From a virus, in the UHGV virus genome UHGV-0040380: a stretch of 27,512 nucleotides of DNA. One strand, given 5' to 3'. This document shows positions 1 to 27,512 of this stretch, one piece after another. Position 1 is the first letter of the stretch. Every line of letters starts with the position of its first letter. A model generated the notes under the pieces. It did not search any database, was not told where the DNA came from, and worked only from the letters and a program-made list of their open reading frames with translations. The translations under genes and the position numbers were made by a program.

Positions 1-4
1 TGAA

Positions 5-39
5 GATAAAAAACCCTCTGTAGTAACAGAGGGTTTTGT
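5..39 (-). terminator. Rho-independent terminator closing the late/lysis operon; hairpin is symmetric so it can act on both strands
   Basis: Perfect 8-bp stem CCCTCTGT / ACAGAGGG (13-20, 25-32) with 4-nt loop AGTA, A-tract 5' (5-12) and T-tract 3' (33-39) on the plus strand, which gives a T-tract after the stem on the minus strand as well. Confidence 0.7.
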
Positions 40-186
40 TCATTCATAGTGCAGGGTCAAATCATTCCCACTCAATTATTTACGACATACATAACCAATT
101 GACTGATAACAACTTTCTGCAACTTGATTTTCACCATACCGTTTTATATACCGTCAACAAAAATCAGTACCATGAAAAATGCCATG

Positions 187-669
187 CTATCTGGTCAGGG
201 TGTCGTACTGTTTTTCGCAGACTCTTCCGGCTTCGGCTGCCCGGTCAGCATACTCTGCCAGTTGTCTATTTCTCTCGAGAGATTTGCTGAACACGTCGGC
301 AAGCAAAACTCCGGTATCTGCGGCTGACGCCCCAGCGCCGACAATGGCGTTATACTGCCTGAGCTGCTCACGGATGGCAACGAGCTGTTGCTGCAACCTG
401 CCAGCGCGAGCGGCAGCATCAAGAGCATCGCTGCGCGCCTGATCGATCCTCTGCTGCGCTTCACGTTCATTGGTCGCTTTCTCCTGTTCGTAGTGCTGAC
501 GAGCCTTTTCTTCTTCGGCTTTGCGGTCTTCTTTCGCCTGCGCATACCCGGCGTCGTACTGACGACTGCCGTGTGCATTCCAGGCTACAACTCCTGACAT
601 GACCAGAACAGCAAGGATCGCCATGATAACCAACTGTTTCCAGTATGCTTTTACGAATGCCCAGATCAT
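187..669 (-). CDS. Rz: Rz-like i-spanin (inner-membrane spanin subunit)
   Basis: 160 aa; N-terminal TM helix ([18 protein letters not shown]) then a charged, Q/R/A/E-rich coiled-coil-like periplasmic region; last gene of the lysis cassette; start overlaps the endolysin stop (ATGA). Confidence 0.7.
195..470 (-). CDS. Rz1: Rz1-like o-spanin lipoprotein, fully embedded in the +1 frame of Rz
   Basis: Alternate-frame ORF with a lipoprotein signal [26 protein letters not shown] (lipobox LAGC) and a Pro/Ser-rich mature part; GGAGA lies about 9 nt upstream of the ATG at 470. A start at the downstream Met (428) is also possible. Confidence 0.5.
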   Translation of the reverse strand: MNVKRSRGSIRRAAMLLMLPLALAGCSNSSLPSVSSSGSITPLSALGRQPQIPEFCLPTCSANLSREIDNWQSMLTGQPKPEESAKNSTTP

Positions 670-1295
670 ACCGCCAGCACCTTACTGGCAGTGATGTAAC
701 GCGCCCGCCGGTCGTCGATGCCGTTCCTGCCACCATTGATAATCAGAGTTACACGTACAATATCTCCGGAATACTTCATGCAGCCTTTGCTGGAGAAAAA
801 CCACGCCGCGCTACGAGCCGCATATTCGTCCTGCGCCAGCAGTTCAGGATTCTCCAGCAGGTCCACTTTCAGGCCGTTTCCGCAGTCACGATAGTTATTC
901 AAACCGGTAATCTGGATAAGTCCGCGCCCACGGTAATTCCATCCATCGCCTGGGGCATTGTTACCCATGCGTTTGCTGTACACCAGATTTGCGATCGCGC
1001 GCTGGCGCTCGAGTGGCAATGGTGGTTCACCAGCACGGCGACCCAGTGCGTTGGCCTGTCCCTGAGTGAGACGTCCTGCCCGAACAAAGTTAACCAGTCC
1101 TGTGATGCTGTAGTTGAAATTCTCCTGCAACCTGGTGAAGCCACCAGACTCATGCCCGACTTGAGCAATAAACATTGCCTGATCTTCTGCTTTGCTGATG
1201 CCAAACTCTTTCATTGCAGAAGTTATATGCGAGAACCAGCGAGCGGCCAGCGCCTCGCTAATACCAGCAGCTCGCTGGAATTGTTTAATGTCCAT
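666..1295 (-). CDS. Endolysin, glycoside hydrolase family 19 (chitinase-like lysozyme)
   Basis: 209 aa with GH19-type motifs ([30 protein letters not shown]); no N-terminal hydrophobic SAR segment; GAGG 8 nt upstream of the ATG; sits between holin-like genes and Rz. Confidence 0.85.
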
Positions 1296-1578
1296 GCTGA
1301 GACCTCGTTATCTTGAAAATTTGCACCACGTTCCCTTTTGTCTTGATAAGGGCTGCCAGGAACACGGCTTTGATGATGATTTCTGACCAATCTGCGCATA
1401 TGTAATGCCCGTAAAAAGTACGAATAGGCACGCTGGCAGCAGAGACAATAAGAAGGTAAGCCAGCCACCCGCCCCACCAGCGATGGCGTGCCCCGTCACG
1501 ACGGAACAGCAGGACTCTGATTGCAATTCCGCCGCAGATTGCGGCGTTCAGGATGAGAAGTAGCTCAGGACTGGCCAT
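1285..1578 (-). CDS. Holin or antiholin-like small membrane protein
   Basis: Internal ATG at 1578 ([17 protein letters not shown]...) with GGAG upstream; about 97 aa with 2-3 predicted TM helices; overlaps the endolysin start. The longer 151-aa ORF-track start is not supported. Confidence 0.5.
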
Positions 1579-1981
1579 CGTCTTTTCTCCCCGGGATAAG
1601 GTCGCGCGGATTTTCAGAGCTGTGATACAGCCAGATACCAATGCGGACAGCAACGATTGCTGATACGAAAGCACCGGCAGAAAACACAATGCCCTTCTCA
1701 AAAGAATCCTGCGTGATCGTTGGTATGAGGCTGGCAACACCGATGAGAATTGATGCTGTCGCTTTGTAGAAGAGAACTCCGCAGAGGAAGCTGAGAATAG
1801 CCAGGATCAGCCGCCGTTTTATTGGGTACTCAACTGCCGAGGTAACAAAAATTACCGCACCAGCAAGAGCACCTAACGCTACTTCTGGAGGAACCCCGGC
1901 AACAACGGAAGCCAGCGCACCAAGGCTAAGCCCCTGATTAAGTGACTCCGTTGTCAGCGTGGTTGCCATAGTGACCACCAT
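1565..1981 (-). CDS. Holin-like membrane protein (3-4 TM helices)
   Basis: 138 aa, strongly hydrophobic with several TM segments; first gene of the lysis cassette, 14-nt overlap with the next gene. Start uncertain (ATG at 1981 or 1969); the strong AAGGAGG upstream is better placed for an out-of-frame ATG at 1992. Confidence 0.5.
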   Translation of the reverse strand: MVVTMATTLTTESLNQGLSLGALASVVAGVPPEVALGALAGAVIFVTSAVEYPIKRRLILAILSFLCGVLFYKATASILIGVASLIPTITQDSFEKGIVFSAGAFVSAIVAVRIGIWLYHSSENPRDLIPGRKDDGQS

Positions 1982-2083
1982 CTATTGTGCATAATAACCT
2001 CCTTAGTTGGAGAGTTTATCATACACATTTTAACCATATATGGTTGACTGTGATTGATTATATCTATGGCATATTTTTAACGA

Positions 2084-4486
2084 TCACGCCCATGTCGCAT
2101 CTATGTAGAACGTTGGAGATGTAGTGGTGGACCCTTCAATCGATATTTGTCCTGTTGAAGCATTAATGGTGGCCATTGCCATGCCAAATGAAACGCCATC
2201 ATCAGTGAACGGTACAGGGACATTTTTGGTTACTTTTGGTCTGCACCACCTCGGAAGCGTTAGAACAGTATTGCCATTCGCAAATGAAGTGGCTGCCAGT
2301 TTAATATTAATTGAATTGGCAGTTAAACTTGACGGTGCCTGTACTGTTACGTTTGTTCCAGCCCACCATTGAACAGCTGCTCTTGGCGTGTAATCAACAC
2401 GCGACCACCAGTCGATAATGGCAGAGCAGATAATTTCCGCATACAGACGATACCCTAACTGGCTTTGGTGAATGTCATCACGCAGAAGTGGGTCGTATTG
2501 CGTGTTGAAATACTCTGGATATGGGGCCGGGAGCTGGTGAGTTGTTGTTACACAAATGACGTTATTGCCATATTTCATCATCTGGCGTTTACCAGCCTCG
2601 CGTAACTCCGCAACACCATCGTAATTTGCTGATGGCTGACCAGCCCCTCCAATAAATGACTGGCTATACCACATCCACGGCTCAACCCAAACAGGTACAC
2701 GCCCGAGACTGTTGCAATATAAGACAAACTCATCTATCAGTGCCGCCATATAATCGCCGTTTTGGTTTCCCTGCCCTTCGTTAGTTCCGGCAACCATAAT
2801 AACGATGTAAGCATCACCCGGCCCCTGAGCCTTCAGGAGATCTAACTGTTGCCTCATTGTCTGTCCGGCAACCGCCTTGTTTACAATGCTATATGAACGG
2901 TGTCCGTTCGCTCCATCCATTAATTGCGGAATGTACGAGCTGAACGCAGAAATGAAATCCTCAGCTGTACTATCACCGTGGATAAGGATATTAAGTGGAG
3001 GCTTACAGTGCACACCATTATCAGAGGTATAGCTAGTCACGCCAGTTACTCGTACAATCGTATTGGGAGCACTACTATTAGCTACAAATCCTACCTCGTA
3101 AACGTCACCTACCGCCGAAGTATCATATGGCAGTCTAAAGCTAACACCATTCATTGTAATTACAGCCCAGTTCTTTGACTGTAATGCCACCCCAATAGTA
3201 GCCTTACCGGGAGCGTAGGACAGCAACCCTCCAGGAAGTGAGAATGGAGAACCGTTTACTACCGCGCCTCCAATTGCTTTCTGCCGTACATCCCATTGTG
3301 GAGCACCAGGAGCGCCGTAGAACATCACCCATCCACCTGAGCACCGTAACACAATACCCACTTCATTAAGAGTATTAGACTCAGCACGAATATGTCCTGA
3401 CACATGCTCACCTACTGCAATGGGTACGAACAATCCACGGGTAACAGAATCGGGTAGAGCAAATAGGGCTGCCGTTTCGGAGCTAGCGAATAATGGACCC
3501 TGAGGCGTAAATGAATCCCCGTCCACTGCATAGACAACACAATCAGACCATTCCACTCGCTTCATGCGAATAGGGTTTCGGTTGAGGATGGCCTGCTTAG
3601 CCAGATAATCCACTTCTCCACCGGTTGTTGTGAAATTAAGATGGGAAAACTCAAAAGTGCATTCACCTTCAAACTTCAGCGACTTATAAAGCGAGTAAAG
3701 ATCGCTGTCGAATTTAAGAATGACGTTTTTATCAACGATTACACGGGAGTTTTGCAGATTTCCTGCCTGTGAGGCCGTTCCTGGTATTGTATAAGTTTTC
3801 TTTGTTGCAGAGTGGCAAGGGAAATAAACATAGCCATAGAGATTTACACTCTCCACCCATGCTGCAACAACGTTTGATTGATTGTAAGATGGCATAACGG
3901 TGATTGGTATCGGCTCAAATTTATCCACACCACCGATCTTTTTCCATCCGTCAGGCTGAGCAAGAAGAATCAGCACTTCACTGGCAGAAGCACTCGGAGG
4001 GAGAATGGCTATAGGCTGCCCACTGTCATCCCAGCCAAAAATCATATTCCGGCGACTTGATACCTTTGGCACCAGGTTTACACTGTTTTCAGGAACCCTA
4101 AGCGTATTTCTCTGAAGAGCACCGATGTTGAACATCGCATGCTGAATAAGCATGGTCAGGTAGTCGAATGCATCCTCATGGACCTCTGCAAAAAATTTCC
4201 CCTGATTTCTTAAATCAGTTTCCTGCACTGCTGGAAGGTTACGAGTGATTGATATTGTAATGCCTGGCAAAACAGGAGATGACGTAATAACGCTTCCACC
4301 GGAAGATAAGCCAGCACCTGTAACCATGTAATCTGTCCCCAGGCTCATTGGAGAAACAAGACCGTCAGCGGTTATTGTGCTTACATCAAGATCTGTGTCT
4401 TTAAAAATTCTGAAAGTATATGGGAATGATGTCGTGACTCCATTCCCGAGATACTCATTGTGGCTGATTTCGGTTGAGACTGTCAT
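2084..4486 (-). CDS. Tail fibre/tailspike: T7 gp17-like N-terminal adaptor domain, central receptor-binding region, C-terminal SGNH/GDSL hydrolase (esterase) domain
   Basis: 800 aa. The N-terminal ~110 aa follow the T7 tail-fibre attachment pattern (YLGNG..FPYTF...DY...I.I.R......DL, recalled from memory). Residues ~497-690 carry SGNH blocks: HGDST (Ser codon at 2969-2971), VAGTNEG, DDIHQS. GGAGA 6 nt upstream of the ATG at 4486. Confidence 0.8.
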   Translation of the reverse strand: MTVSTEISHNEYLGNGVTTSFPYTFRIFKDTDLDVSTITADGLVSPMSLGTDYMVTGAGLSSGGSVITSSPVLPGITISITRNLPAVQETDLRNQGKFFAEVHEDAFDYLTMLIQHAMFNIGALQRNTLRVPENSVNLVPKVSSRRNMIFGWDDSGQPIAILPPSASASEVLILLAQPDGWKKIGGVDKFEPIPITVMPSYNQSNVVAAWVESVNLYGYVYFPCHSATKKTYTIPGTASQAGNLQNSRVIVDKNVILKFDSDLYSLYKSLKFEGECTFEFSHLNFTTTGGEVDYLAKQAILNRNPIRMKRVEWSDCVVYAVDGDSFTPQGPLFASSETAALFALPDSVTRGLFVPIAVGEHVSGHIRAESNTLNEVGIVLRCSGGWVMFYGAPGAPQWDVRQKAIGGAVVNGSPFSLPGGLLSYAPGKATIGVALQSKNWAVITMNGVSFRLPYDTSAVGDVYEVGFVANSSAPNTIVRVTGVTSYTSDNGVHCKPPLNILIHGDSTAEDFISAFSSYIPQLMDGANGHRSYSIVNKAVAGQTMRQQLDLLKAQGPGDAYIVIMVAGTNEGQGNQNGDYMAALIDEFVLYCNSLGRVPVWVEPWMWYSQSFIGGAGQPSANYDGVAELREAGKRQMMKYGNNVICVTTTHQLPAPYPEYFNTQYDPLLRDDIHQSQLGYRLYAEIICSAIIDWWSRVDYTPRAAVQWWAGTNVTVQAPSSLTANSINIKLAATSFANGNTVLTLPRWCRPKVTKNVPVPFTDDGVSFGMAMATINASTGQISIEGSTTTSPTFYIDATWA

Positions 4487-4590
4487 GTTAATTCTCCAGA
4501 TAGTCGCAGCACCCGTTGCGCCGCATATCCGGTTATTCTATTACCCGAAAAACCACATATGGATAGACAACCCATAAATACGAACAGATA

Positions 4591-4681: not shown

Positions 4682-4939
4682 ATGCAGCAGTATCACTATC
4701 CACTGGAAGACGGATTTACCGAAAGGATTCACACGCCGGGAGGCGTCAGGTCACTGGTGGAGGGATCGCACTTGATGAAATTACTCCGGGATCTCGATAA
4801 GGATGGATTTAATGTCGATGGCCCACTTGCCGAACTGACTGCACTGATTAACTACGTCACCAGCTCGCAGATGTCTATGCAGGATCTGCAAACACATCTC
4901 GACTATTGTGCCGAACAATTACGAAAACAAACCAGATAA
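4682..4939 (+). CDS. SOS-regulated small protein of unknown function (85 aa); candidate LexA-controlled antirepressor or moron
   Basis: ATG at 4682 preceded by GGAGAAG; opposite in orientation to all neighbouring structural genes; LexA box immediately upstream. No motif recognised in the sequence. The longer ORF-track start at 4559 would translate through the operator and has no SD. Confidence 0.5.
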   Translation: MQQYHYPLEDGFTERIHTPGGVRSLVEGSHLMKLLRDLDKDGFNVDGPLAELTALINYVTSSQMSMQDLQTHLDYCAEQLRKQTR

Positions 4940-5126: not shown

Positions 5127-5288
5127 ATGAAAAAAGCATTTGCTGCACTGTTCGTTTTGTTGTCTCTGGTAGCTTCAACTCAGGCCTTTGCCGGTCGTTG
5201 TCAGCACGACAGCGACACTGCTGCTGACGGCTCCCGCTGCGGTGGGCGTTCTGCGGATTCCCGCCCTGGCGGCGGTGGCATTCGTTAA
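5127..5288 (+). CDS. Small secreted peptide (53-aa precursor with a Sec-type signal peptide)
   Basis: MKKAFAALFVLLSLVASTQAFA has textbook n/h/c regions and an AxA cleavage site; predicted 31-aa mature peptide is G/R/D/S-rich with two Cys. The SD is weak and it is shorter than the ORF-track cutoff, so confidence is modest. Confidence 0.4.
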   Translation: MKKAFAALFVLLSLVASTQAFAGRCQHDSDTAADGSRCGGRSADSRPGGGGIR

Positions 5289-5311
5289 AAACAAGGCCGC
5301 GAAAGCGGCCT
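5286..5311 (-). terminator. Rho-independent terminator after the membrane-protein gene
   Basis: Stem AGGCCGC / GCGGCCT (5294-5300, 5305-5311) with GAAA loop; on the minus strand it is followed by TTGTTTTT (plus-strand A-tract 5286-5292). Confidence 0.6.
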
Positions 5312-5323
5312 GTGACATGTCAC
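5312..5323. repeat. 12-bp perfect palindrome GTGACATGTCAC (copy 1 of 3)
   Basis: Identical 12-mers at 5312-5323, 22855-22866 and 25120-25131; here it overlaps the TGA stop of the 5320-5616 gene and abuts the terminator hairpin. Confidence 0.6.
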
Positions 5324-5616
5324 GTTCCTTTTCTGAATGATAGCCGTTCGAAAAATGATGACATTCCACCGCAGACAATAGCAAAGATGATCCCACCAAA
5401 GAAGAGAAGGCCAGCCTGCCACCACTCCCACCGCCATACATCCACAGCACCAACCATACCAACAATCGCTCCAACAAATGGAATATAGCTCACGATGAAA
5501 GCAATGGGGGCTGCAATTATCCAGTGCAATCCCCACCATGATTCAAGCCCAGCCATAATTGCTGCCAACTGAAAAAGACCAACGACGATATAAACAATGA
5601 ATCCTATAGCTTGCAT
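5320..5616 (-). CDS. Small integral membrane protein (98 aa, three predicted TM helices), standalone gene with its own terminator
   Basis: AGGTGA SD 5 nt before the ATG at 5616; highly hydrophobic with W/G-rich loops; followed by a terminator; lies between the core-protein genes and the tailspike, a position not occupied in T7-type modules. Confidence 0.55.
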   Translation of the reverse strand: MQAIGFIVYIVVGLFQLAAIMAGLESWWGLHWIIAAPIAFIVSYIPFVGAIVGMVGAVDVWRWEWWQAGLLFFGGIIFAIVCGGMSSFFERLSFRKGT

Positions 5617-5811: not shown

Positions 5812-8286
5812 TTATTGCGGAGTGACATCCTGAGGTCGCCACCAGTATGTCTGATTAAACTCTTTCTTCGAACGTTGCTCCATTTTACGCAAATAGCCTG
5901 GTGAAAAATACTCCTGCATCTGGTTAAAGATCATATGATCGAGAGCCGCCTTTAAGTACCAGAGATTCGCACCGGGCATCAAACCTTTCCCCAGCTTCAC
6001 CAGATCACCACCAGTCTGCTCACTCTTCCCTTCCACAGCATTTAACGGTATGCCCTGAGCAATCTTCACTACGTCATCAACCAGACCAGCTACCGGGCCA
6101 AGCATCGACGCCAGCGCGCCGCTTCCGTACCTAGTGTGATCTGACAATAAAAAGTCACCGTAAAGGCCAAGGCCACCACCTTTCAGTAGAGCACCAAGCC
6201 AGAATTTTGCGGCACCTTCTCCTGTCATCTCTCGAGGATTACGACCAGACGCAAGGTCGTTAAGTTGCTGCGACAAAGCGCCAAGAATGGTCGTACTGGC
6301 AATAAACGTCGCAATATATGCCGCACGCCCACCAGCAGACGGCATACCCATAGCGCGTGACCAGTGACGCATAACAACCGAGATAGGGAACGATTTAAAC
6401 AGGAAAACACTTCTCGTTAATTCACCTTTCCATGTTCCACGCTGAATACCAGAACCGGTTATCAGTTGCTCACGAGCTCCCGGTGTAATAACAGCCATAT
6501 CAACTTCTTCAGTTACGGCACCGAGCAATTTACGCATTGCCTCAAATTTCACGCGCTCAGGCTCACCAAGATGTTTAACTGCTGAATCAGGGATACGCAT
6601 AATGCTTTCCGGTGTCAGCATCGTATTATTACCGTTCCCCCAGTCCTCCTGTTGCGCCAGCTTCCATACGCTCCAGTCTGTGTCAGTAATCCCTTTGCTT
6701 TTCAGGATACGAAAATCAGAGTCATCGAGGCTACGAAGGTCTGGTGTCCGTGACACTACTTCTCCCAGGCTTCCCATCATGGTTACGCCATAGGCGCGCT
6801 TGTGCGCATCTGACCATGCTGTAAGCCCACTGGCACGCATTACCGCCGTTGCCGCCCAACGAGACACTGACGGCCCCATATTATCCATCGCCCAGCGGTT
6901 AACGCTGCCAAGTAGAGATTCCATCGCCAGACCAGCGCGGCGCGCCCGCGCAAGTTCTGTACGGTTCGTTGGGTCCATAGCTTCAAGCTGGTTGCGGAAT
7001 AACTGGTTCATTGGAAGGTTGGTAACCTTCGCAGACAGATACATGGTTCCAAGATCAGAGAACGATGACAGCAACGCGGATCCGAGTCTGCTGGCAACCA
7101 GCCAGTTGCGGATATTGTCAGACCATCGCGCGATGTGCGGATTCGCTACAGGCTGTGTCTTTCCGGAAATAAAGTTGTACAGATTCTCTGTGTTGTTCGC
7201 CAGCCGCTCGACTTTACCGGTTTTACTCGGGTTAGCTGTTGCCGTTTCTGCCTTCACCTGATCAAGAAGAGAGCGGAAAACATGATCGGGGTTTGGGCCA
7301 TATGTTTCCACCAGTGCAATATCTTTACTGATACCTTCCAGGTGACCGACCATGATTTCCCATAGAGAGCGATCACCATAAAGTTGTTGATATTGGAGAT
7401 AGGAATCTGCATCTTTGAAATGTATCTGTCGTGATGCATTACCACGGTTAGCACGTGCGCCGGAAATTCGCATTCCGGTATCAGTAAGCTTATTCAGCCC
7501 ACCAGTAGCGATCGTGTTATAAGCCTCTCCAAGAAATGCAGACAACTCGGCATCGTTCATCAGTTGTCCATCGGCTCGGGTATAATATTTGCGATCCAGC
7601 TTACCTATAACATCGCCAACCCACTTATCCTTTGATACCGCCCCAACCTTTTCCATAGAATGATGTTGAGGGATCCCCCAGTTTTCGAGATAGCCAATGT
7701 CCCCACCAGCATCATTAAACCGGCGGCGCAGCAGCTCTGTAACTTCTCTCCACGCCTTAGCACCTTTTCTTGCTTTAGCATTGCCAGTATTTTGCCCCCG
7801 CATTTCATATACCAGGTCACGTACGCCCGCTTCATCTTCAAACAGACCAAAAAAGCGAGGATCAACTGCTTCGAATGCCTCCTGCAATTGACTCAATGCA
7901 TAATCACGGGTGGCTTTTGTTCTGGATTCAACAGAGAGGAAATTAGATTTACCGTCTGCATTAAAAGCTATAGTACGGTTAAGAGCGCCAAGTTTCCCAT
8001 CAGCCCCTTGATAGCTATTGATAAATTTATCCAATCTCTGACGCGCGGCTATAGTGAGAGCCACACGACGTTTCTTTAATGCCGCTTCTCGCTGTAATTC
8101 TTCAGATGCCAATTGTGCTGCTCGATATAGCCGCTCTGATTCGGAAAGTTGTCGCCACGACATCGGATCATCACGAGCAATGGAGCGCATATTTCGATAA
8201 ATGCGGTCTTCAATGTTCTGTATTTCTCGCGCCGTTAACGTGCGCTGCGCCGCCTGCTGGACCGCTTGTATACATTCCTGTCTCAT
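5812..8286 (-). CDS. Internal virion (core/ejection) protein, large
   Basis: 824 aa; last of three consecutive large proteins translationally coupled downstream of the tubular proteins, matching the position of T7 gp15/gp16-class core proteins; no enzymatic motif recognised. Confidence 0.55.
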   Translation of the reverse strand: MRQECIQAVQQAAQRTLTAREIQNIEDRIYRNMRSIARDDPMSWRQLSESERLYRAAQLASEELQREAALKKRRVALTIAARQRLDKFINSYQGADGKLGALNRTIAFNADGKSNFLSVESRTKATRDYALSQLQEAFEAVDPRFFGLFEDEAGVRDLVYEMRGQNTGNAKARKGAKAWREVTELLRRRFNDAGGDIGYLENWGIPQHHSMEKVGAVSKDKWVGDVIGKLDRKYYTRADGQLMNDAELSAFLGEAYNTIATGGLNKLTDTGMRISGARANRGNASRQIHFKDADSYLQYQQLYGDRSLWEIMVGHLEGISKDIALVETYGPNPDHVFRSLLDQVKAETATANPSKTGKVERLANNTENLYNFISGKTQPVANPHIARWSDNIRNWLVASRLGSALLSSFSDLGTMYLSAKVTNLPMNQLFRNQLEAMDPTNRTELARARRAGLAMESLLGSVNRWAMDNMGPSVSRWAATAVMRASGLTAWSDAHKRAYGVTMMGSLGEVVSRTPDLRSLDDSDFRILKSKGITDTDWSVWKLAQQEDWGNGNNTMLTPESIMRIPDSAVKHLGEPERVKFEAMRKLLGAVTEEVDMAVITPGAREQLITGSGIQRGTWKGELTRSVFLFKSFPISVVMRHWSRAMGMPSAGGRAAYIATFIASTTILGALSQQLNDLASGRNPREMTGEGAAKFWLGALLKGGGLGLYGDFLLSDHTRYGSGALASMLGPVAGLVDDVVKIAQGIPLNAVEGKSEQTGGDLVKLGKGLMPGANLWYLKAALDHMIFNQMQEYFSPGYLRKMEQRSKKEFNQTYWWRPQDVTPQ

Positions 8287-17012: not shown

Positions 17013-17024
17013 ATACACTCCTGC

Positions 17025-17407: not shown

Positions 17408-17408
17408 C

Positions 17409-17846: not shown

Positions 17847-17897
17847 CTTCTTTCTCCATTAGTGGGTCTGTTACGACCCACAGGTTAATAACAGGCG

Positions 17898-21584: not shown

Positions 21585-21791
21585 TTACTGACCAAGCAGC
21601 GTTTTACCGCTGGTATTAGCGGTTGATGTGTCGCCCTGAGAACCGGTAAGCAGCGTAGAACTACGACCAGCAGCAGCGCGACGGCGACGTGTTTCTTCGT
21701 CGCGGGCATCAACAACGGCGGCATCCTGCTCCTGTGGTGCTGCCTGAACTTCTGGTGTTGCAGGCACTGATGGTGAGCTACCCATGCACAT
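21585..21791 (-). CDS. Small low-complexity protein upstream of portal
   Basis: 68 aa, A/T/S/R-rich; ATG with GGAG about 10 nt upstream; ends 14 nt before the portal start. A competing overlapping frame (21572-21811) has a TTG start and no SD. Confidence 0.35.
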   Translation of the reverse strand: MCMGSSPSVPATPEVQAAPQEQDAAVVDARDEETRRRRAAAGRSSTLLTGSQGDTSTANTSGKTLLGQ

Positions 21792-22218: not shown

Positions 22219-22295
22219 GTGGCATTAGCTCAGTCGGACAGAGCAACCGCCTTCTAAGCGGTTGGTCGCAGGTTCGAATCCTGCATGCCACGCCA
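22219..22295 (+). tRNA. tRNA-Arg (anticodon UCU, reads AGA/AGG), phage-encoded
   Basis: Cloverleaf folded by hand: acceptor GTGGCAT / ATGCCAC, D-stem GCTC / GAGC, anticodon stem ACCGC / GCGGT with loop CTTCTAA, T-arm GCAGG-TTCGAAT-CCTGC, discriminator G plus encoded CCA. Resembles E. coli argU but has a different acceptor stem. Confidence 0.9.
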
Positions 22296-22338
22296 GAATC
22301 ACGCCTAAGGACCGTGATGCCAGAAGTTCCAGGTGCTT

Positions 22339-22381
22339 GGCGGTGATGGTTTCCCTTGAAGGACTATCACCGCCCTTTTTA
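22339..22381 (+). terminator. Rho-independent terminator downstream of the tRNA
   Basis: 9-bp stem GGCGGTGAT / ATCACCGCC (22339-22347, 22366-22374) followed by CTTTTTA. Confidence 0.55.
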
Positions 22382-22458
22382 CAGCAGGACGCCATTGCGA
22401 TGACTTCATGCTGTAAACCCGTACAGCCACGGAAGGCATAACTCATTGCTTCCAGTTC

Positions 22459-22482
22459 GCCCGGTTCGCCGGGCATTTTTTT
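22459..22482 (+). terminator. Strong rho-independent terminator 1 nt upstream of the RBS of the 22494 gene
   Basis: Stem GCCCGG / CCGGGC with TTCG tetraloop (22459-22474), then A plus TTTTTTT (22476-22482); the SD AAGGTGAG starts at 22483. Confidence 0.65.
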
Positions 22483-22493: not shown

Positions 22494-22850
22494 ATGAACG
22501 ACCAGCAAATCGAAAAAGAAATCGTTGAGAAAGGCAAAACCGCTCCGCGAGTTACGCCTCAATATATCGAAAGCATCATTCTTGAAGAGCATTTCTTTAC
22601 TGCTTATGACGGCATTCGTGCTGCCAATATGGGCGTTGGCGATTCATGGACAGCGCATAAATCTACAGACCTCCTGACTTTCTGCGTACTGGTGCTGAAG
22701 AATGGCTTCACCGTCACCGGAGAAAGCGCCTGTGCAAGCCCGGAAAACTTTGATGCAGAAATTGGTCGGAAGATTGCCCGGCAGAATGCTGTAAACAAAA
22801 TCTGGATGCTCGAAGGTTACTTGCTGAAGCAGAAGCTAAGCGAGCAATAA
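22494..22850 (+). CDS. Hypothetical protein (118 aa), moron in opposite orientation to the late genes
   Basis: ATG with AAGGTGAG SD; no signal peptide or TM segment; not recognised by me; bracketed by intrinsic terminators on both sides. Confidence 0.6.
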   Translation: MNDQQIEKEIVEKGKTAPRVTPQYIESIILEEHFFTAYDGIRAANMGVGDSWTAHKSTDLLTFCVLVLKNGFTVTGESACASPENFDAEIGRKIARQNAVNKIWMLEGYLLKQKLSEQ

Positions 22851-22866: not shown

Positions 22867-22870
22867 AAAC

Positions 22871-22897
22871 AGCCAGCCTATGAGCTGGCTTTGTTTT
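22871..22897. terminator. Convergent (bidirectional) terminator between the 118-aa gene (+) and terL (-)
   Basis: Stem AGCCAGC / GCTGGCT (22871-22877, 22884-22890) with 6-nt loop, followed by TTGTTTT on the plus strand and GTTTGTG on the minus strand. Confidence 0.6.
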
Positions 22898-22940: not shown

Positions 22941-24416
22941 TTAAGCATAGGGATCGTAATCTGTGATGGCCTTGCCTTGCTGGTTCTGCTGACCGGGAAT
23001 TCGCAGACGCTTCGACACAGGGAACGCAAACGTCAGCAGTAGCGCATCGCCTTTACCAGGAGAACGCCCAAGTCGCTCTTTGATATCTTCCTTCGGTTCG
23101 ATAACGATTTTACCGTCCACTCGAACTTTGTACTCTGCTGCCGACAGGTCGTCCGCTGTTTCCTGGTCATCAAGCATGCCGCCCAGCCTCAGCCATGTCT
23201 TGCATGAGTTGAACATCTCCCCACGCTTGTTGAGCATCTGCGGGTCAGTAGACGCGCCACCGAACTGAACAAGTTGCCATGTACGACCCCAGCCGTCACC
23301 GATTGACTTCAGACCAGTTCCGTAACCGAAGTCGATGAACACTGCGTCAGCCTGGTACTGGTCTTCAAAGTCAGCGATACGCTTCGCCATAATCAGATCG
23401 TCAGTGGTCTTGTTGCCGGTCCACAGCACCTTACTATGCAGCCCCTGCCGCAGGTATATCACAGCGTCATCAACACCGGAGTATGCCGGGTCAACGCCGA
23501 TTATCACCGGAGCATGTGCAACCTGCGCAGCGGTTACCACCCGTTTCATTGCCTCGTCAGTAAGGCCGGTAGGGATAAACTGCAATTCAGATGCATCCGG
23601 GAATATGCCGCGCACACGGATTTTAACGAAGTCGCTGTCTTCCCCGTAGTCATCAACCCATTTCTGCAACTGCTGTTTGTTAGTGCCTTCCACCGTCCGG
23701 CTGTCAATCTGCGCAGTTTTCCAGCGGTGTTTATATTTGCGGAAACATTCGCGAAAACGCCCGGTGTTACGTGTAGGGTTTCCGAACGCCACCCAGATAA
23801 TCTCAGTGTCTTCGTCCGTAAGCGCACCCTCGGCAACTTCCCACACCAGATCCGCAATGTTCGACGCTTCATCAAACACCACGATGATGCGTTTGCGCTC
23901 GTTGTGTAGTCCGGCGAATGCCTCGGTGTTGTGCTCAGACCAGGGGATTGCGTCAGCTCGCCACCGCTTGTCGTGCCCAGGATCATTGCTGTACATCGCG
24001 GTAGCGGTACAGGTAAACCAGTCTTTCGTGATAGCAAGGTTTGACCACTTGATAATTTCCGGCCAGGTCTTCGTTCGTAGCTGGTTGTCGGTGTTGGCGG
24101 TCACCACGACCTTACAATCCTCGCAAGTGGACATGCCCCAGTTGATCAGCATTGAGATGAATGCGGATTTACCAATACCGTGACCAGAAGCACGTGCCAG
24201 CATAAGCGGCTGATAACGCGTCTCTGGATTCTGCAGGTGATCACGTATCTCTCGGAACGCATCGGCCTGCCACTGACGTGGGCCGGTGGCATGTGCCAGT
24301 TCAGTCCCCTCTTCCCCCCACGGGAACGCATAGAGGGCATAGCCAAGCGGATCGTGAGTGAACCCTGCAATATCCTCGATTAACTGCTCTTCAGGAGATA
24401 ACGCTGTATCTGTCAC
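22941..24416 (-). CDS. terL: Terminase large subunit
   Basis: 491 aa; Walker A-like GHGIGKS, Walker B-like IIVVFDEAS, C-terminal nuclease-like region (IIGVDPAYSG, DAVFIDFGYG); start overlaps the terS stop. Confidence 0.9.
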   Translation of the reverse strand: MTDTALSPEEQLIEDIAGFTHDPLGYALYAFPWGEEGTELAHATGPRQWQADAFREIRDHLQNPETRYQPLMLARASGHGIGKSAFISMLINWGMSTCEDCKVVVTANTDNQLRTKTWPEIIKWSNLAITKDWFTCTATAMYSNDPGHDKRWRADAIPWSEHNTEAFAGLHNERKRIIVVFDEASNIADLVWEVAEGALTDEDTEIIWVAFGNPTRNTGRFRECFRKYKHRWKTAQIDSRTVEGTNKQQLQKWVDDYGEDSDFVKIRVRGIFPDASELQFIPTGLTDEAMKRVVTAAQVAHAPVIIGVDPAYSGVDDAVIYLRQGLHSKVLWTGNKTTDDLIMAKRIADFEDQYQADAVFIDFGYGTGLKSIGDGWGRTWQLVQFGGASTDPQMLNKRGEMFNSCKTWLRLGGMLDDQETADDLSAAEYKVRVDGKIVIEPKEDIKERLGRSPGKGDALLLTFAFPVSKRLRIPGQQNQQGKAITDYDPYA

Positions 24417-25009
24417 TGATTACTATCCTGACGTTCTTTGAGTCGCTTCCTGGCTGCTGCTATGCGATCAGCAATTGTCACATTCACATTAACATCCAGA
24501 CGTTCTTTGAACGCGTTGACATCAACATGCTTACCAATCAGCTCAAGGTTCTTCACCTTGTCAGGCCATTTAATTTTTTTGAGGATTGTCTCTATCGAAT
24601 CCTCGTTCATGTTCATGATGGTCGATGACAGATCAAAGCCACTAAGCGTAGTGCGCCAGATTTTCGGCCACTCGCGGATTGGCTTAAGGCTCCCATCGTC
24701 GTTGAGGATGTCGATCACGTCCATCTGGTCGATCTCCACCAGGCGCATGAGAACGTAATCAGCACTGACGCGCATTCGTTTGTTGCGCTCCTCCATCAAC
24801 TCGGCAATCCGTTTTTGAATGCGTTCATCGCGCATCATGACACTGGCTTTAACTGCCGCTGTATTTGGGGAGAATCCTGCGTTAATCGCTGCCTGAGTCT
24901 GGTTTTCAGGCGTTTTGATGTATGACTGGCAATAAGCCTCCTGCATTGCTGTGAGCGGCTTAAATTGCGTTGATTTGCGTTTATAGGTTTTAGGTTCAGC
25001 AGGCATCAT
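24413..25009 (-). CDS. terS: Terminase small subunit
   Basis: About 198 aa from the ATG at 25009 (GGTGG SD); terminase small-subunit-type N-terminal HTH region (QTQAAINAGFSPNTAAVKAS). The ORF-track TTG start at 25087 would run through a terminator hairpin and direct repeats. Confidence 0.8.
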   Translation of the reverse strand: MMPAEPKTYKRKSTQFKPLTAMQEAYCQSYIKTPENQTQAAINAGFSPNTAAVKASVMMRDERIQKRIAELMEERNKRMRVSADYVLMRLVEIDQMDVIDILNDDGSLKPIREWPKIWRTTLSGFDLSSTIMNMNEDSIETILKKIKWPDKVKNLELIGKHVDVNAFKERLDVNVNVTIADRIAAARKRLKERQDSNQ

Positions 25010-25017
25010 AACCACCG

Positions 25018-25046
25018 TGGTAATAGTTACCGTTGTGGTAATAGTA
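25018..25046. repeat. Tandem direct repeats GTGGTAATAGT x2 (7-bp spacer) in the terS leader
   Basis: Identical 11-mers at 25018-25028 and 25036-25046, between the upstream terminator and the terS RBS. Confidence 0.5.
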
Positions 25047-25051
25047 CCATG

Positions 25052-25078
25052 CAAAATAAAGCCGCCATAGTTGGCGGC
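25052..25078 (-). terminator. Rho-independent terminator upstream of terS (separates accessory genes from the packaging/late genes)
   Basis: Stem GCCGCCA / TGGCGGC (25061-25067, 25072-25078) with 4-nt loop; minus-strand T-tract TTTATTTTG follows. Confidence 0.6.
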
Positions 25079-25119
25079 AGTATTCAAAGTCCATCAAATT
25101 CATCATGCATAATCTACTC

Positions 25120-25131
25120 GTGACATGTCAC
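25120..25131. repeat. 12-bp perfect palindrome GTGACATGTCAC (copy 3 of 3)
   Basis: Overlaps the TGA stop of the 25128-25469 gene, as copy 1 does for the 5320-5616 gene. Confidence 0.6.
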
Positions 25132-25469
25132 ACTATTAATTTCGTTTCATGCCAGCCTTTGGTCACCCAGCATTGCGAGTCACCACTACACGGGCATGAA
25201 TTCACAGGAACTCTCTCGCCGCACTTACCGCAACGTTTTCTGCTGATCGATTTTATACGCCCGCGCACGCGTGCATCATCCTGGCGGATCAGTAACGCTA
25301 TATACTCACCAAATTCGTAAGGCGCACGCCCGGGGCGACGCGTGGCGCAGTTCCGCTCCAGCATTTCAATTTCCTGAGCATCAAGCACAATCTCCAGCTT
25401 ACGTACACCGGATGCAGCTTGTCTGGCTCTCTGAGCGGCTTTGCGCTCTGCTGCTGATTTAGCCATCAA
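25128..25469 (-). CDS. Small basic protein with a C-terminal Cys-rich (zinc-finger-like) segment; possible regulator
   Basis: 113 aa; Arg/Lys-rich N-terminus and a CGKCG...CPCSGDSQC cluster; last gene before the terminator that precedes terS. Function not established from sequence. Confidence 0.45.
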   Translation of the reverse strand: MMAKSAAERKAAQRARQAASGVRKLEIVLDAQEIEMLERNCATRRPGRAPYEFGEYIALLIRQDDARVRGRIKSISRKRCGKCGERVPVNSCPCSGDSQCWVTKGWHETKLIV

Positions 25470-25740
25470 TATTCACCTTTATCGCGAACACTTTTACCGG
25501 TTTATCGCCGAAGTGCGGATGCGTGATTGTCTTGATTTCATATCCGTCATACGAAACATCAATTCTACGGCTGGAATCGTCGCGCTTCGGATATCCCTTT
25601 GTGATAATCAGGCGGTCATACTCCCGGAACATAATTCGCTTATTCCAGTAGTCATTACACAGGCGATATTCTTCTGTTTTCTCTCCGCAAATCATGGCAT
25701 CGAAGTATTCACCTTTAACGGCAAGTTGCAGGTTAGCCAC
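25459..25740 (-). CDS. ASCH-domain protein
   Basis: 93 aa containing the ASCH signature GxKxxExR (GEKTEEYR) near the N-terminus. Confidence 0.6.
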   Translation of the reverse strand: MANLQLAVKGEYFDAMICGEKTEEYRLCNDYWNKRIMFREYDRLIITKGYPKRDDSSRRIDVSYDGYEIKTITHPHFGDKPVKVFAIKVNIDG

Positions 25741-26626
25741 GGTTAACCTCCTGCGGCGGTTCTGGTAGCGGCATCCAGTGTGTTACCTGCTCAACACCAT
25801 TGCCCGGCTTAATCGTTGCATCTCCGCGCCGGAATGTGCTTCCGGTATAGCGTGCGGAGCATATTAGCGGTTCAACCAGAGAGCTATCAAAATTCACCGA
25901 AATAAGCACGTTCTGGCCCTTTTCAGGCATTTGATCACTACAGCTTATCCAGCCATCCGTAGTTACCGGAGGAGTGCCCGATAGCGCGGTCTGCTCCAGT
26001 GATGCTTTTACAAACCACGCGGCCTGAACTATTACGTCATGAATCCAGCGCAAATCAGCCTCGCGATCTTTCTTTTTCATCTTTTCGCCACTTAAAGCCT
26101 GGCTTATGTGGCTGCGAACCAGGTTTTCATGTAATTCCTTCGCATCCTCAATGGTGAAACCACCAGGCAGGCGAGCCGGGGTTACATGAGGGTTGCCTTC
26201 CCCCAGACTCTGAAGCATGGCGGCACTCCGCTCTATACCATCCAGCGCGATTCGCAGTGCCTGAATTGTGGTAGAGCTATCGTTTGGGGCTATTCCATAT
26301 CGCTCGAATACAGCTAAATGGTTGCGCATAATCTCAGGCGTAAGCTCTTTGTAAGCATAAGCAAGAGGCTCTGATGCATTATCCGGCACAACCGACACAG
26401 GCGCGGCAGCATAAACAGGAATAACGTCCGCTTGCTCTTTATTGCTTTCATCCGTTAAAGCCCAGAATAATTTCCCGGCCGGATGTTTGAAAATATAAGC
26501 AACTGGTTCTGCTTCCAGCGATGCCAGCGCAATCCGTGCCAGTTCCATTTGTTCTCCACGAGTAAGCCCGTTATCAAGCGGATTTTTAATGAATAATTCG
26601 ATACTTTCTTTGGTAATAGTGGTCAT
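25733..26626 (-). CDS. DUF551-domain prophage protein
   Basis: 297 aa; the C-terminal segment (WISCSDQMPE...VTHWMPLPEPP) matches the DUF551 pattern common in enterobacterial prophages (from memory). Confidence 0.55.
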   Translation of the reverse strand: MTTITKESIELFIKNPLDNGLTRGEQMELARIALASLEAEPVAYIFKHPAGKLFWALTDESNKEQADVIPVYAAAPVSVVPDNASEPLAYAYKELTPEIMRNHLAVFERYGIAPNDSSTTIQALRIALDGIERSAAMLQSLGEGNPHVTPARLPGGFTIEDAKELHENLVRSHISQALSGEKMKKKDREADLRWIHDVIVQAAWFVKASLEQTALSGTPPVTTDGWISCSDQMPEKGQNVLISVNFDSSLVEPLICSARYTGSTFRRGDATIKPGNGVEQVTHWMPLPEPPQEVNRG

Positions 26627-26628
26627 AG

Positions 26629-26820
26629 CTATTTCACCTTAATCTCAACATTTCTCAGCTTTAGCTCTACTGGCAGGTCTGACTTTCCTGTTAATGCTAA
26701 TGCGAGATTTTCTGGGGTAATGAGAGCAGTTATTGTTTTCCCCATTGCCAGACGAATAATTATTCGTATTTCGCGATCGTCACATGCTCCTGGTCGAACG
26801 ATTGATATTTGTCCGTCCAT
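26629..26820 (-). CDS. Hypothetical small protein
   Basis: 63 aa; coupled between the DUF551 and Ea22-like genes. Confidence 0.35.
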   Translation of the reverse strand: MDGQISIVRPGACDDREIRIIIRLAMGKTITALITPENLALALTGKSDLPVELKLRNVEIKVK

Positions 26821-26821
26821 C

Positions 26822-27370
26822 TCACTCTCCTTTGATGCGAATGCCAGCGGCGCGGATTGCAGCGATGACTTCAGAAACTTTGTATGCCATTACCGTTTGG
26901 TAATCCTCGTGAAAATCTGTTCGATGAAGCATGCTGCTACGTTCCGGGAGCGATATTTCCCGTTCATCCAGTTCTGCTATGCGCTTCTCTGCGGCTTCCA
27001 GCGCTCTTCCCTGCTCGCCATTCTTCTTCTCCAGCGATTCAATTCGGTCAGCCTGCTGGTTGATATGGTTGTCCTGTGCGGACAATACTTTGTCTTTGGC
27101 TTCCCGTTCATCCAGTAGTGCCAGCACGGTAGCTGGATTGGCTGCGGCGATGAATTCAGCATTGGCCTGCTGTTCCATTTGGAAATCTTCATCGAAACCG
27201 CTTTCAGGATGCGCTCCTTCAATTCTGCAAATGGGAAGATATCCAACAACTTCACGATGAATTAGCGCATCACCAGCATCAAATATCTCCTCTCCATATT
27301 CTAGCGACCACACACCACTCGTTGCTTTCTCTGCCTTTTCACGCAGCGCCTGATAGTCAATCTTGTTCAT
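26822..27370 (-). CDS. Ead/Ea22-like prophage protein
   Basis: 182 aa; N-terminus MNKIDYQALREKAEKATSGVWSLEY resembles the conserved start of lambdoid Ea22-like proteins (from memory); coiled-coil C-terminal half. Confidence 0.45.
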   Translation of the reverse strand: MNKIDYQALREKAEKATSGVWSLEYGEEIFDAGDALIHREVVGYLPICRIEGAHPESGFDEDFQMEQQANAEFIAAANPATVLALLDEREAKDKVLSAQDNHINQQADRIESLEKKNGEQGRALEAAEKRIAELDEREISLPERSSMLHRTDFHEDYQTVMAYKVSEVIAAIRAAGIRIKGE

Positions 27371-27371
27371 G

Positions 27372-27512
27372 TCACATCACCCTGAATCCGTTGCATTTAC
27401 GTAAGAAATCGCAGATATAGCCCTTCATTTTTTCATGCCAATCTCGATCATTCCCATTGCACCAACCATCAGGTGGAGTCCAGTTTTCTATCAGAGCAGC
27501 CATTTTCTTTGC
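27372..27512 (-). CDS. 3' end of a further minus-strand gene, truncated by the window edge
   Basis: Open frame runs from the window edge to the TGA at 27372-27374 (...MAALIENWTPPDGWCNGNDRDWHEKMKGYICDFLRKCNGFRVM); the stop is 1 nt from the next start. Confidence 0.3.
   Translation of the reverse strand, partial: AKKMAALIENWTPPDGWCNGNDRDWHEKMKGYICDFLRKCNGFRVM

Follow-up and report, generated by a model that had tools for sequence, protein, structure and literature searches.

Gene content and order of the window

The DNA under study is the virus genome UHGV-0040380, a stretch of 27,512 nucleotides (nt) that we call the window, which carries the late genes of a temperate podophage, the last of its early genes and a short piece of host chromosome. 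All late genes lie on the minus strand, as established by open reading frame (ORF) calls together with Pfam and PHROGs assignments. The order begins with an Ea22-like gene, a 63-amino-acid (aa) ORF, a DUF551 gene, a 93-aa ORF, a 113-aa ORF, terS, terL, an island, the portal gene and Bbp19. After a 231-aa protein in the scaffold position come the major capsid protein (MCP), the Bbp16 cement protein and a 114-aa ORF; a hairpin at 17031-17044 separates these from the gp10 staple, adaptor and nozzle. Next are two smaller internal proteins, one of 155 aa and one of the T7_gp14 family, and three large ones of 837, 600 and 824 aa (c837, c600 and c824), then a second island and the tail fibre (800 aa). 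The lysis genes complete the series: two for holins, one for a GH19 endolysin, and Rz, within which Rz1 is embedded. An earlier reading made from the letters alone (the sequence-only reading) had proposed this order from terS to Rz/Rz1; nearly all of its gene calls were upheld by the Pfam, PHROGs and PDB sequence searches, and its lengths for the large core proteins (824, 600 and about 837 aa) proved exact. It had also listed a separate portal followed by a scaffold; the order holds, but portal and Bbp19 form one 657-aa ORF here. The principal features are listed below.

24413-25087, minus: terminase small subunit, TerS (PF03592 Terminase_2, E = 1.5e-29)
22941-24416, minus: terminase large subunit, TerL (phrog_2, E = 1e-52; 94% identical to epsilon15 TerL)
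19597-21570, minus: fused 657-aa ORF, portal of the T7 gp8 family plus Bbp19 (PF12236, E = 9e-187, and PF25181, E = 7e-16, in one ORF)
19902-19909, minus: run of eight G (G8; C8 on the plus strand), cause of the frameshift by alignment (GGGTGGG in relatives, G7 in a few)
18899-19594, minus: 231-aa protein in the scaffold position (phrog_458 'protease', E = 1e-110)
17898-18884, minus: MCP, epsilon15 GP7 family (PF20911, E = 1e-148)
17409-17846, minus: Bbp16-family capsid cement protein (PF21190, E = 5e-47)
17063-17407, minus: small conserved head-module protein of 114 aa, epsilon15 gp9 homologue (phrog_590, E = 4e-61; 40% identical)
17031-17044, minus: hairpin GGGGC-TTCG-GCCCC followed by TTTATT, read in the sequence, between the capsid-accessory and the staple/tail genes
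16677-17018, minus: capsid staple protein, epsilon15 gp10 family (PF21628, E = 8e-52)
16084-16689, minus: adaptor (tubular protein A), 201 aa (PDB 8ck1_E 'Connector Protein', E = 6e-27; phrog_9239 'tail tubular protein')
13613-16084, minus: tail nozzle (tubular protein B), 823 aa (PDB 8ck1_A 'Tail Nozzle', E = 1e-216)
13149-13616, minus: small internal virion protein, 155 aa, T7 gp13 position (phrog_308 'internal virion protein', E = 7e-62)
12604-13149, minus: gp14-family internal virion protein, 181 aa (PF24072 T7_gp14)
10091-12604, minus: c837, gp15-position internal protein (N-terminal module of about 248 aa, then an Enc34/PHA02564-type glycosidase domain at residues 249-398)
8292-10094, minus: c600, with Gly/Ala-rich hydrophobic segments (32% identical to epsilon15 gp16)
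5812-8286, minus: c824, large internal (ejection) protein with a predicted gp16-class fold (AlphaFold2 (AF2) model; 28% identical to epsilon15 gp17)
5294-5311, minus: strong intrinsic terminator hairpin closing the virion operon (7-bp stem, 6 G-C pairs, T-tract)
2084-4486, minus: tail fibre/tailspike, 800 aa (conserved N-terminal anchor at residues 1-117, rare receptor-binding part)
1565-1969, minus: holin-family membrane protein, 134 aa, three hydrophobic segments (PF16931 Phage_holin_8, E = 3e-12; 84% identical to epsilon15 gp23)
1285-1578, minus: holin, 97 aa, two hydrophobic segments (PF05449 Phage_holin_3_7, E = 7e-25; start codon checked)
666-1295, minus: GH19 (chitinase-like) endolysin (PF00182, E = 6e-10; 84% identical to the epsilon15 endolysin)
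187-669, minus: Rz-like i-spanin (phrog_312, E = 1e-58; 86% identical to epsilon15 Rz)
195-470, minus: Rz1 lipoprotein o-spanin, embedded in Rz (phrog_11621, E = 7e-39; 85% identical to epsilon15 Rz1)
1-59, no strand: bacterial chromosome flank, yfgI side (prophage/host junction at about 59/60; phage matches end at window position 60)

The window as part of a Uetakevirus prophage

A 25-kb query from the window was compared by megablast with 50,697 phage records, nine of which covered at least 80% of it. The best records, with 96-97% identity over 86-88% of the query, were phiv142-3, ZX5, the O157 typing phages 9 and 10, phiV10 (NC_007804) and HEMP4; PAS61 was likewise among the top records at 96-97% identity. 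For phiV10 the figures were 96.4% over 87% of the query, and its TerL is 99% identical to that of the window. Among 5,426 complete Escherichia coli genomes, 280 contained at least 80% of the query, the closest being strain NADC1036 (98.1% identity, 98% coverage), whose element occupies the same chromosomal site as the window's and has also been deposited as a separate 38.7-kb record. The order from terS to Rz/Rz1 is the same in phiV10 and phiV10-like prophages such as NADC1036, at about 96-98% nucleotide identity.

The gene order is collinear, gene for gene, with the annotations of phiV10, NADC1036 and epsilon15. The last of these, a Salmonella phage and the type species of the genus Uetakevirus, with a core stack, a gp7 capsid and a gp10 staple described by cryo-electron microscopy, is more distant: it shares 77% DNA identity over only 46% of the query, and protein identities between the two range unevenly along the genome from 28 to 94%. 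A comparison with epsilon15-like phages had been suggested by the sequence-only reading; run over the whole length with phiV10 and epsilon15 as a test of identity, it gave a similarity that was not patchy and upheld the assignment. Near-identity together with gene-for-gene collinearity with phiV10, NADC1036 and epsilon15 therefore places the window in Uetakevirus. The epsilon15-type capsid of that genus is present in the GP7-family MCP (PF20911) and the gp10-family staple (PF21628), at the E values listed, and its temperate character is evident from the host flank at 1-59 and from repressor-like helix-turn-helix, DnaT-like and lambda-P-like genes on the same scaffold (see below). The earlier view of the phage as a temperate podovirus is accordingly well founded in the host junction, the repressor-like gene and the collinearity with phiV10 and epsilon15.

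Taken together, we put the probability at about 0.95 that an integrated temperate podophage of the genus Uetakevirus (epsilon15/phiV10 type), lying in an E. coli chromosome, is represented in the window by its right-hand two thirds. The window spans the attachment junction by yfgI (at about position 60), the lysis, tail-fibre, core, tail, head and terminase genes, and the last early genes. This layout, including the terminase in first place, is the canonical Uetakevirus genome, and near-identical prophages are already present in RefSeq. The arrangement had been presented as a new mosaic; it is the standard layout, found at 96-98% identity in phiV10 and E. coli prophages.

Individual relatives nevertheless differ from the window at defined places. 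phiV10 has another receptor-binding part in its tail fibre, where the window has an SGNH-motif allele; it carries an O-antigen acetyltransferase gene between tail fibre and holin, of which the window has none, and a BRO-N gene in the island downstream of the core genes, where the window has a 98-aa membrane protein. In both phiV10 and NADC1036, portal and Bbp19 are separate, whereas they are fused in the window. epsilon15 differs by serotype-conversion genes after the tailspike and by its diverged capsid module (36-43% identical), c600 (32%) and c824 (28%). Within the capsid module at 17063-18884, identity to epsilon15 is 43% for the MCP, 36% for the cement protein, 40% for the gp9-like protein and 43% for the staple, while the neighbouring portal (81%), adaptor (84%), nozzle (88%) and TerL (94%) are much closer. 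That the capsid module is far more diverged than its neighbours indicates module exchange within the genus.

The same module order also occurs in Pseudomonas phage AF and in the wider group of Bbp16/Bbp19 podophages, the families being named after Bordetella phage BPP-1. Phage AF shares 54% identity with the window in TerL, 48% in the MCP, 41% in the portal and 39-55% in the nozzle, and it possesses Bbp19- and Bbp16-like genes. It differs in having a single 2213-aa protein in place of c600 and c824, and in carrying its holins ahead of the tailspike.

Integration site and continuation beyond the window

Alignment with the phiV10 phage attachment site (attP) and the NADC1036 chromosome located the boundary of the element. 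After ...GGGAATGATT the window departs from phage sequence and passes into the host flank beside yfgI. The host flank contains a terminator hairpin at 10-37 with the sequence AAAACCCTCTGTTACTACAGAGGGTTTT. A near-copy of this hairpin is found in the attP region of phiV10 (about 26780-26813), and the phage may bring a substitute for the host terminator that is displaced at integration. In phiV10 and epsilon15 the integrase gene comes after Rz/Rz1. Because attP lies between Rz and the integrase gene, integration splits them and leaves the lysis genes at the prophage end; the earlier placement of these genes at the far end is thus borne out by the host flank, which puts the lysis cassette at the prophage terminus.

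A metagenome scaffold of 38,683 bp in the ENA is 99.95% identical to the window across an overlap of 17.9 kb. Beyond the window it carries a repressor-like helix-turn-helix gene, replication genes of the DnaT-like and lambda-P-like kinds, and one for a DUF3799 nuclease. Since the scaffold runs on into regulatory and replication genes, the window belongs to a prophage of full length rather than to a remnant made up of structural genes.

Core proteins and the predicted wall-cutting domain

The three large core proteins were examined for catalytic domains and for relationship to the internal virion proteins of T7. Residues 249-367 of c837 align with PDB 7Q47, the endolysin of Hafnia phage Enc34 (E = 3e-17), and a further match was to the N-terminus of Gp29 in 9VVP (E = 4e-38). 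In the Enc34 endolysin, Glu131 is catalytic, Trp79 and Tyr95 are also important, and muralytic activity has been reported (PMC8943055). The corresponding residues of c837 in the alignment, E360, W313 and Y325, are conserved. c837 therefore carries a predicted peptidoglycan hydrolase domain of the Enc34/PHA02564 type. In Enc34 this domain forms a lysis-cassette endolysin with a C-terminal membrane anchor, whereas in c837 it is one part of a large protein inside the virion, an arrangement matched at the 9VVP Gp29 N-terminus; epsilon15 gp15, 85% identical to c837, has the same domain. Pfam detected no SLT domain in c837, c600 or c824, while T7 gp16 matched SLT at E = 2e-31. The sequence-only reading had noted the lack of a lytic-transglycosylase motif, which is right as regards SLT and overlooks the Enc34-type muralytic domain of c837.

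The AF2 model of c824, built from a 119-sequence alignment, reached a predicted local distance difference test (pLDDT) score of 92 and a predicted template-modelling (TM) score of 0.92. Searched against BFVD, it matched proteins named 'Internal virion protein D' or internal core proteins at E values of 1e-8 to 5e-6, TM scores of 0.45-0.51 and about 12% identity, from the T7-like and phiKMV-like phages Bordetella BB8, Ralstonia RSB3, Providencia PSTRCR_120 and Pseudomonas LKA1. T7 gp16 itself bears the name 'Internal virion protein D'. There was no credible match of c824 to solved structures in PDB by sequence or by model, and no PDB sequence match of c600. Structure prediction points to a gp16-class fold for c824 with no solved counterpart.

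A first homologue search with c824 gave only relatives at least 88% identical, and the wider family, comprising 5,118 cluster representatives, was obtained from a search of representatives. In five proteins of 1707-2913 aa (P0140, P0148, P0235, P0143 and P0194), the N-termini match c600 (E = 2e-23 to 1e-8) and the C-termini match c824. Moreover, the c824-family profile also finds the one large protein of cassette type B (see below), matching its C-terminal half at E = 3e-22, with an hhalign probability of 98-99%. Because they are fused elsewhere and the type B single protein is matched, c600 and c824 behave as two pieces of one unit. The 2213-aa gp16 of phage AF has no BLAST similarity to c600 or c824 and so lends no support to the split-gene idea, which draws on P0140 and the other fused proteins. 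Other members of the c824 family (about 1040-1166 aa) carry an insertion between c824 residues of about 570 and about 580, which suggests that c824 has two modules.

The core cassette was surveyed in 80 viral contigs that share with the window a nozzle at 98-99% identity, a set of close relatives only and unsuited to deep profiles. Three types were found.

Type A (the window's), 45 loci: 154 + 181 + 837 + 600 + 824 aa
Type B, 26 loci: 154 + about 191 + 902-915 + one protein of 1004-1129 aa
Type C, 5 loci: 154 + 181 + 873 + 565 + 849 aa

The presence of three large core proteins instead of two had been singled out as a peculiarity of this phage; it is an allelic polymorphism within the group and does not distinguish the window. 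It seems that the whole set of ejection proteins is swapped together, against a nearly invariant background of head and tail genes. All alleles in the gp15 position have their first ~248 residues in common, at 43-57% identity. Beyond this point, SLT (PF01464) follows in the 873-aa and 905-aa alleles (L034:13481-16102, E = 1.5e-17, and L054:13481-16198, E = 4e-7), and an Enc34-type domain follows in a 915-aa allele (L040) and in epsilon15 gp15. The predicted muralytic domain thus alternates between an SLT and a PHA02564 type, with the point of exchange fixed near residue 248.

The gp15-like proteins of K1E and SP6 have been reported to carry a wall-cutting domain (PMC8954989), and the epsilon15 core stack leaves the particle to form a periplasm-spanning tube (PMC8954989; PMC12391199). 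By analogy, c837 would take the gp15 position with a wall-cutting domain, and c600 and c824 together would stand at the place of gp16. According to Table 1 of PMC8954989, the proteins that epsilon15 ejects are gp11, gp12 and gp13, with lengths of 229, 499 and 708 aa. The RefSeq record of epsilon15 gives these three names to the adaptor (201 aa), the nozzle (825 aa) and a small internal protein (154 aa), respectively; the mapping in that table seems to refer to other proteins. For work on podophage DNA injection, the exchange of the cassette as a unit, the exchange of the wall-cutting domain and the gp16-class c824 may be of modest use.

Terminase, head and tail compared with P22 and T7

A P22-type terminase had been proposed for the window. 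The same Pfam scan that assigned TerS to Terminase_2 gave PF16677 GP3_package for P22 gp3 and Terminase_6N plus Terminase_6C for P22 gp2. TerL matched no Pfam terminase family even at E <= 5 and no PDB sequence, and its BLASTP comparison with P22 gp2 was not significant (E = 0.21). A tblastn search with TerL found relatives in Pseudomonas phage AF (54%), phage RpY1, podophages of Vibrio and Ralstonia, the Liberibacter phages SC1 and SC2 and, distantly, P1 PacB; P22-like phages were absent among 40 rows sampled evenly from the 252 phage records matching TerL. Since TerS belongs to Terminase_2 and TerL is without similarity to P22 gp2, the terminase is not of P22 type. P22 (Lederbergvirus) is alike in being a temperate podophage with the terminase first in its late operon, an O-antigen-specific tailspike and ejection proteins, and differs in its terminase subunit families, portal family, tail machine and capsid accessory proteins. 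Gene callers place the start of TerS at 25006, which gives a product of 197 aa.

The capsid module, comprising the GP7-family MCP, Bbp16 and the gp10 staple, is by its family matches of epsilon15/BPP-1 type and not of T7 type. The 231-aa protein encoded ahead of it matched no protease family and nothing in Pfam, NCBIfam or PDB. Its N-terminus is acidic and proline-rich and the remainder is rich in Ala, Glu and Lys; by composition and position, a scaffold role would fit better than 'protease'. The 'protease' label in PHROGs and RefSeq appears to derive from an old similarity note in the epsilon15 record. An NCBIfam scan of ten structural proteins gave nothing useful.

To judge the T7-type virion module proposed earlier, T7's own proteins were run through the same Pfam scan as the window proteins. 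The portal family PF12236 is common to the window (E = 9e-187) and T7 gp8 (E = 3e-113), and the gp14 family PF24072 was detected in the window at 31.2 bits (cut-off 27) and in T7 gp14 at 160 bits. The Pfam families Tube and Phage_nozzle had no window match at E <= 5, while T7 gp11 and gp12 matched them strongly, and Phage_T7_Gp13 reached only E = 0.12 on the 155-aa protein. The nozzle also matched a Legionella phage structure (9efk_M, E = 2e-15) and is 88% identical to epsilon15 gp12. Entry 8CK1 comes from a relative and provides solved structures of its nozzle, adaptor and tailspike anchor. The link of adaptor and nozzle to T7 runs through the depositors' names of the 8CK1 chains and through the epsilon15 record, which notes an HHpred match of gp11 to T7 tubular protein A. 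No paper was found in the literature under the entry codes 8CK1 and 9VVP. The claim of a T7-type module therefore stands for the portal and gp14 families and for the gene order, holds indirectly for adaptor and nozzle, and fails for the capsid module.

T7 (Autographiviridae) likewise has portal, scaffold position and capsid ahead of a partial terminator, and after it the adaptor, the nozzle, small and then large internal proteins, and the fibre. It differs in having a phage RNA polymerase, whereas the window phage has none and is temperate; in its terminase, that of the window standing first and belonging to another family; in its capsid, that of the window being of epsilon15/BPP-1 type with cement and staple; and in the muralytic domain, which in the window lies in the gp15-position protein and is predicted to be of PHA02564 type. 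Because few families are shared, pairwise similarity is lacking (see below) and the capsid is of another type, the likeness to T7 is best regarded as old, structure-level and genus-wide, and not as a recent acquisition.

Fusion of portal and Bbp19

The portal gene of the window carries the G8 run where relatives have GGGTGGG or, in a few cases, G7. G8 shifts the portal frame 16 nt ahead of the portal stop, and the result is a 657-aa portal-Bbp19 product. Only three portal residues are altered before Bbp19 resumes in frame. The Bbp19 portion occupies 19597-19893 and retains its own ATG at 19893, and the G-run sits where the Bbp19 ribosome-binding site is expected; for these two reasons, free Bbp19 could still be made. 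Separate genes for a 559-aa portal and a 98-aa Bbp19 are present in phiV10, NADC1036 and 71 of 76 viral contigs.

G8 was found in 0 of 391 E. coli genomes (G7 in five) and in 0 of 74 viral contigs, and a 657-aa portal in 0 of 76 relatives. The exact fusion product is present on 6-7 contigs in ENA and Logan (ERZ28614948; ERR7738572), from at least two accessions and two assembly pipelines. These contigs are identical across the structural region and carry clustered single-nucleotide polymorphisms (SNPs) relative to the window elsewhere. Recurrence on separate contigs indicates that the G8 allele is probably real, and it is possibly limited to one host lineage.

Alternative explanations

Several observations weigh against the reading as a Uetakevirus prophage of epsilon15/phiV10 type and against the mechanism proposed for it. 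The part of the 38.7-kb scaffold that was covered stops about 4.3 kb short of the end and does not include the integrase end of the prophage. No window protein had significant pairwise similarity to T7 gp8-gp19 by BLASTP or phmmer. Comparison of the c824 family with T7 gp16 by hhalign was insignificant (probability 7.5%), and with T7 gp15 the probability was 0.1%. The structure prediction of c837 was poor (pLDDT 62.5), likely because its alignment mixes alleles with different central and C-terminal parts, and was kept out of the fold search. The roles of the individual core proteins are presumptive, with information on c600 at the sequence level only. Finally, the portal gene is frameshifted into Bbp19, for which reason this copy may not make normal virions. 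The competing view of the whole architecture is a new mosaic in which a virion module of T7 type was joined to a terminase of P22 type and to accessory genes of lambdoid kind. It can appeal to the portal and gp14-like proteins in T7 Pfam families, to the Ea22 and DUF551 genes, which are common in lambdoid phages, to the epsilon15 record, which gives gp2 of the P22-like phage Sf6 as the best HHpred template for TerL, and to the uneven identity to epsilon15. However, the complete arrangement is already present at 96-98% in phiV10 and hundreds of prophages and defines the genus, phiV10 and epsilon15 have every module, neither terminase subunit falls into its P22 family, and the capsid, cement and staple proteins are not T7-type. 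We consider a new mosaic very improbable. The architecture belongs under Uetakevirus and is not a T7/P22/lambda chimera, and the value of the analysis lies in correction and in refinements within a known system.

As to the fusion, it is possible, if on balance doubtful, that this copy is a crippled (cryptic) prophage in which G8 blocks head assembly, so that the element persists only in the chromosome. The absence of the fusion from the E. coli genomes, viral contigs and relatives examined fits a recent deleterious mutation, and the fusion contigs, identical in the structural region, may represent one clonal host lineage; yet all other window genes are intact, just three portal residues are altered with Bbp19 following in frame, Bbp19 has its own ATG and the G-run at the expected place of its ribosome-binding site, so that free Bbp19 is possible, and the allele has been assembled repeatedly. 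A sequencing or assembly artefact, with portal and Bbp19 truly separate as in relatives, is quite unlikely: homopolymers are prone to error and all other sequences read GGGTGGG or G7, but the identical product recurs across accessions and pipelines, the contigs bearing it differ from the window by clustered SNPs elsewhere, and the change from GGGTGGG to G8 requires a substitution plus an insertion. It is rather unlikely, too, that a heritable G8 allele yields a viable portal-Bbp19 fusion or, alternatively, that slippage on the G-run gives fused and separate products. If true, a viable portal-Bbp19 fusion would be a natural 'Rosetta stone' for role.

Transcription signals and proposed mechanism

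No phage RNA polymerase gene is present in the window, as the sequence-only reading had stated, and every substantial ORF is assigned to something else. Nor is an RNA polymerase annotated in phiV10 positions 1-29736 (of 39104) or in the complete epsilon15 record. Promoter-like sites, which had been noted together with terminators, were no commoner than in shuffled sequence (19 against 22.9 +/- 5.2, and 9 against 11.1 +/- 3.3). The hairpins at 5294-5311 and 17031-17044 are clear, and that part of the claim stands. The latter is probably a partial terminator; stem-loops are annotated in epsilon15 at the matching place.

From what is known of epsilon15 and T7, we infer the following course for the Uetakevirus prophage. 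Host RNA polymerase would read one long late operon from a start upstream of terS, and the partial terminator after the capsid-accessory genes would probably reduce expression downstream. TerS and TerL would package DNA through the T7-gp8-type portal into an HK97-fold capsid strengthened by cement and staple. Adaptor and nozzle would form the stubby tail, to which tailspikes would attach by their conserved N-terminal 117 residues, and the five internal proteins (155, 181, 837, 600 and 824 aa) would form the core stack on the portal. On infection, these five proteins would be ejected to build a channel across the cell envelope, c837 cleaving peptidoglycan by its Enc34-type glycosidase domain, with c824 as the gp16-class component and c600 as its partner, fused to it in other phages. 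Lysis would be accomplished by the two holin-family proteins, the GH19 endolysin and Rz/Rz1.

Tail fibre

The N-terminus of the tail fibre matches the 8CK1/28LX tailspikes at E = 3e-22, as well as many tail PHROGs. Tailspikes of Uetakevirus prophages are modular and serogroup-linked (PMC10408124). Residues 196-800 have four weak matches among phage isolates (at most 28% identity), and the allele is found in 12 of the 5,426 complete E. coli genomes, with nucleotide identity reaching 91.8% at most. The blocks conserved in SGNH/GDSL esterases are GDS, which holds the Ser nucleophile, a Gly/Asn block and DxxH; motifs of this kind are present in the right order (GDS at 504, GTNE at 567, DDIH at 670). 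Lipase_GDSL_2 matches at E = 5e-4 and 21 bits, below the Pfam cut-off of 32.9 bits, and RefSeq calls some copies, one of them 92% nucleotide-identical, 'SGNH/GDSL hydrolase family protein'. A deacetylating tailspike is a reasonable guess from these motifs, and the rare allele may interest those seeking O-antigen-specific receptor-binding proteins. The last ~59 residues are 93% identical to the C-terminus of an 'endo-N-acetylneuraminidase' of Escherichia phage vB_EcoM_ESCO9, possibly a C-terminal module common to both proteins. The 114 nt between tail fibre and first holin gene (1970-2083) contain no O-antigen-modifying gene.

Early-gene end, islands and tRNA

The remaining features lie at the early-gene end and in the two islands.

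25128-27370, minus: end of the early-right region, with the 113-aa, 93-aa, DUF551, 63-aa and Ea22-like genes (Pfam, PHROGs)
22494-22850, plus: gene of the N4 gp49/Sf6 gp66 family (PF13876, E = 2e-34; terminator at 22871-22890)
22219-22295, plus: tRNA-Arg, anticodon UCU (ARAGORN; Rfam 73 bits)
21585-21791, minus: 68-aa conserved protein, epsilon15 gp3 homologue (88% identical; phrog_831)
5320-5616, minus: 98-aa protein with three hydrophobic (predicted transmembrane) segments (phrog_3075), last gene before the terminator
5127-5288, plus: 53-aa predicted secreted/membrane-associated peptide with a signal-peptide-like N-terminus (phrog_14503 'membrane associated protein', E = 1e-39)
4682-4939, plus: 85-aa gene of the variable island, epsilon15 gp19 homologue (84% identical; phrog_450)

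Of the flanking lambdoid genes named previously, the Ea22-like gene (PF13935) and the DUF551 gene (PF04448) were recovered by Pfam, and the ASCH gene was not: the best trace of ASCH (PF04266) had E = 0.16 and 13.2 bits over 23 residues of the 93-aa ORF, against a cut-off of 21.2 bits. No record was found for the exact Ea22 and DUF551 product sequences. The 113-aa protein is a putative regulator (phrog_536 'transcriptional regulator', E = 2e-54) and is 79% identical to epsilon15 gp49. The 98-aa membrane protein was present in only 17 of the 80 close relatives, and it and the 53-aa product are moron candidates, for example for superinfection exclusion.

The region of tRNA-Arg(UCU), which is followed by terminator hairpins at 22339-22374 and 22459-22474, is kept in all 76 of the 76 relatives with a hit. 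An 83-aa ORF at 22225-22476 overlaps the tRNA gene on the other strand, and at the corresponding place, judged by position and not by alignment, phiV10 annotates the hypothetical protein PhiV10p04. AGA is used in the late genes at 5.7 per 1000 codons, which is above the E. coli average.

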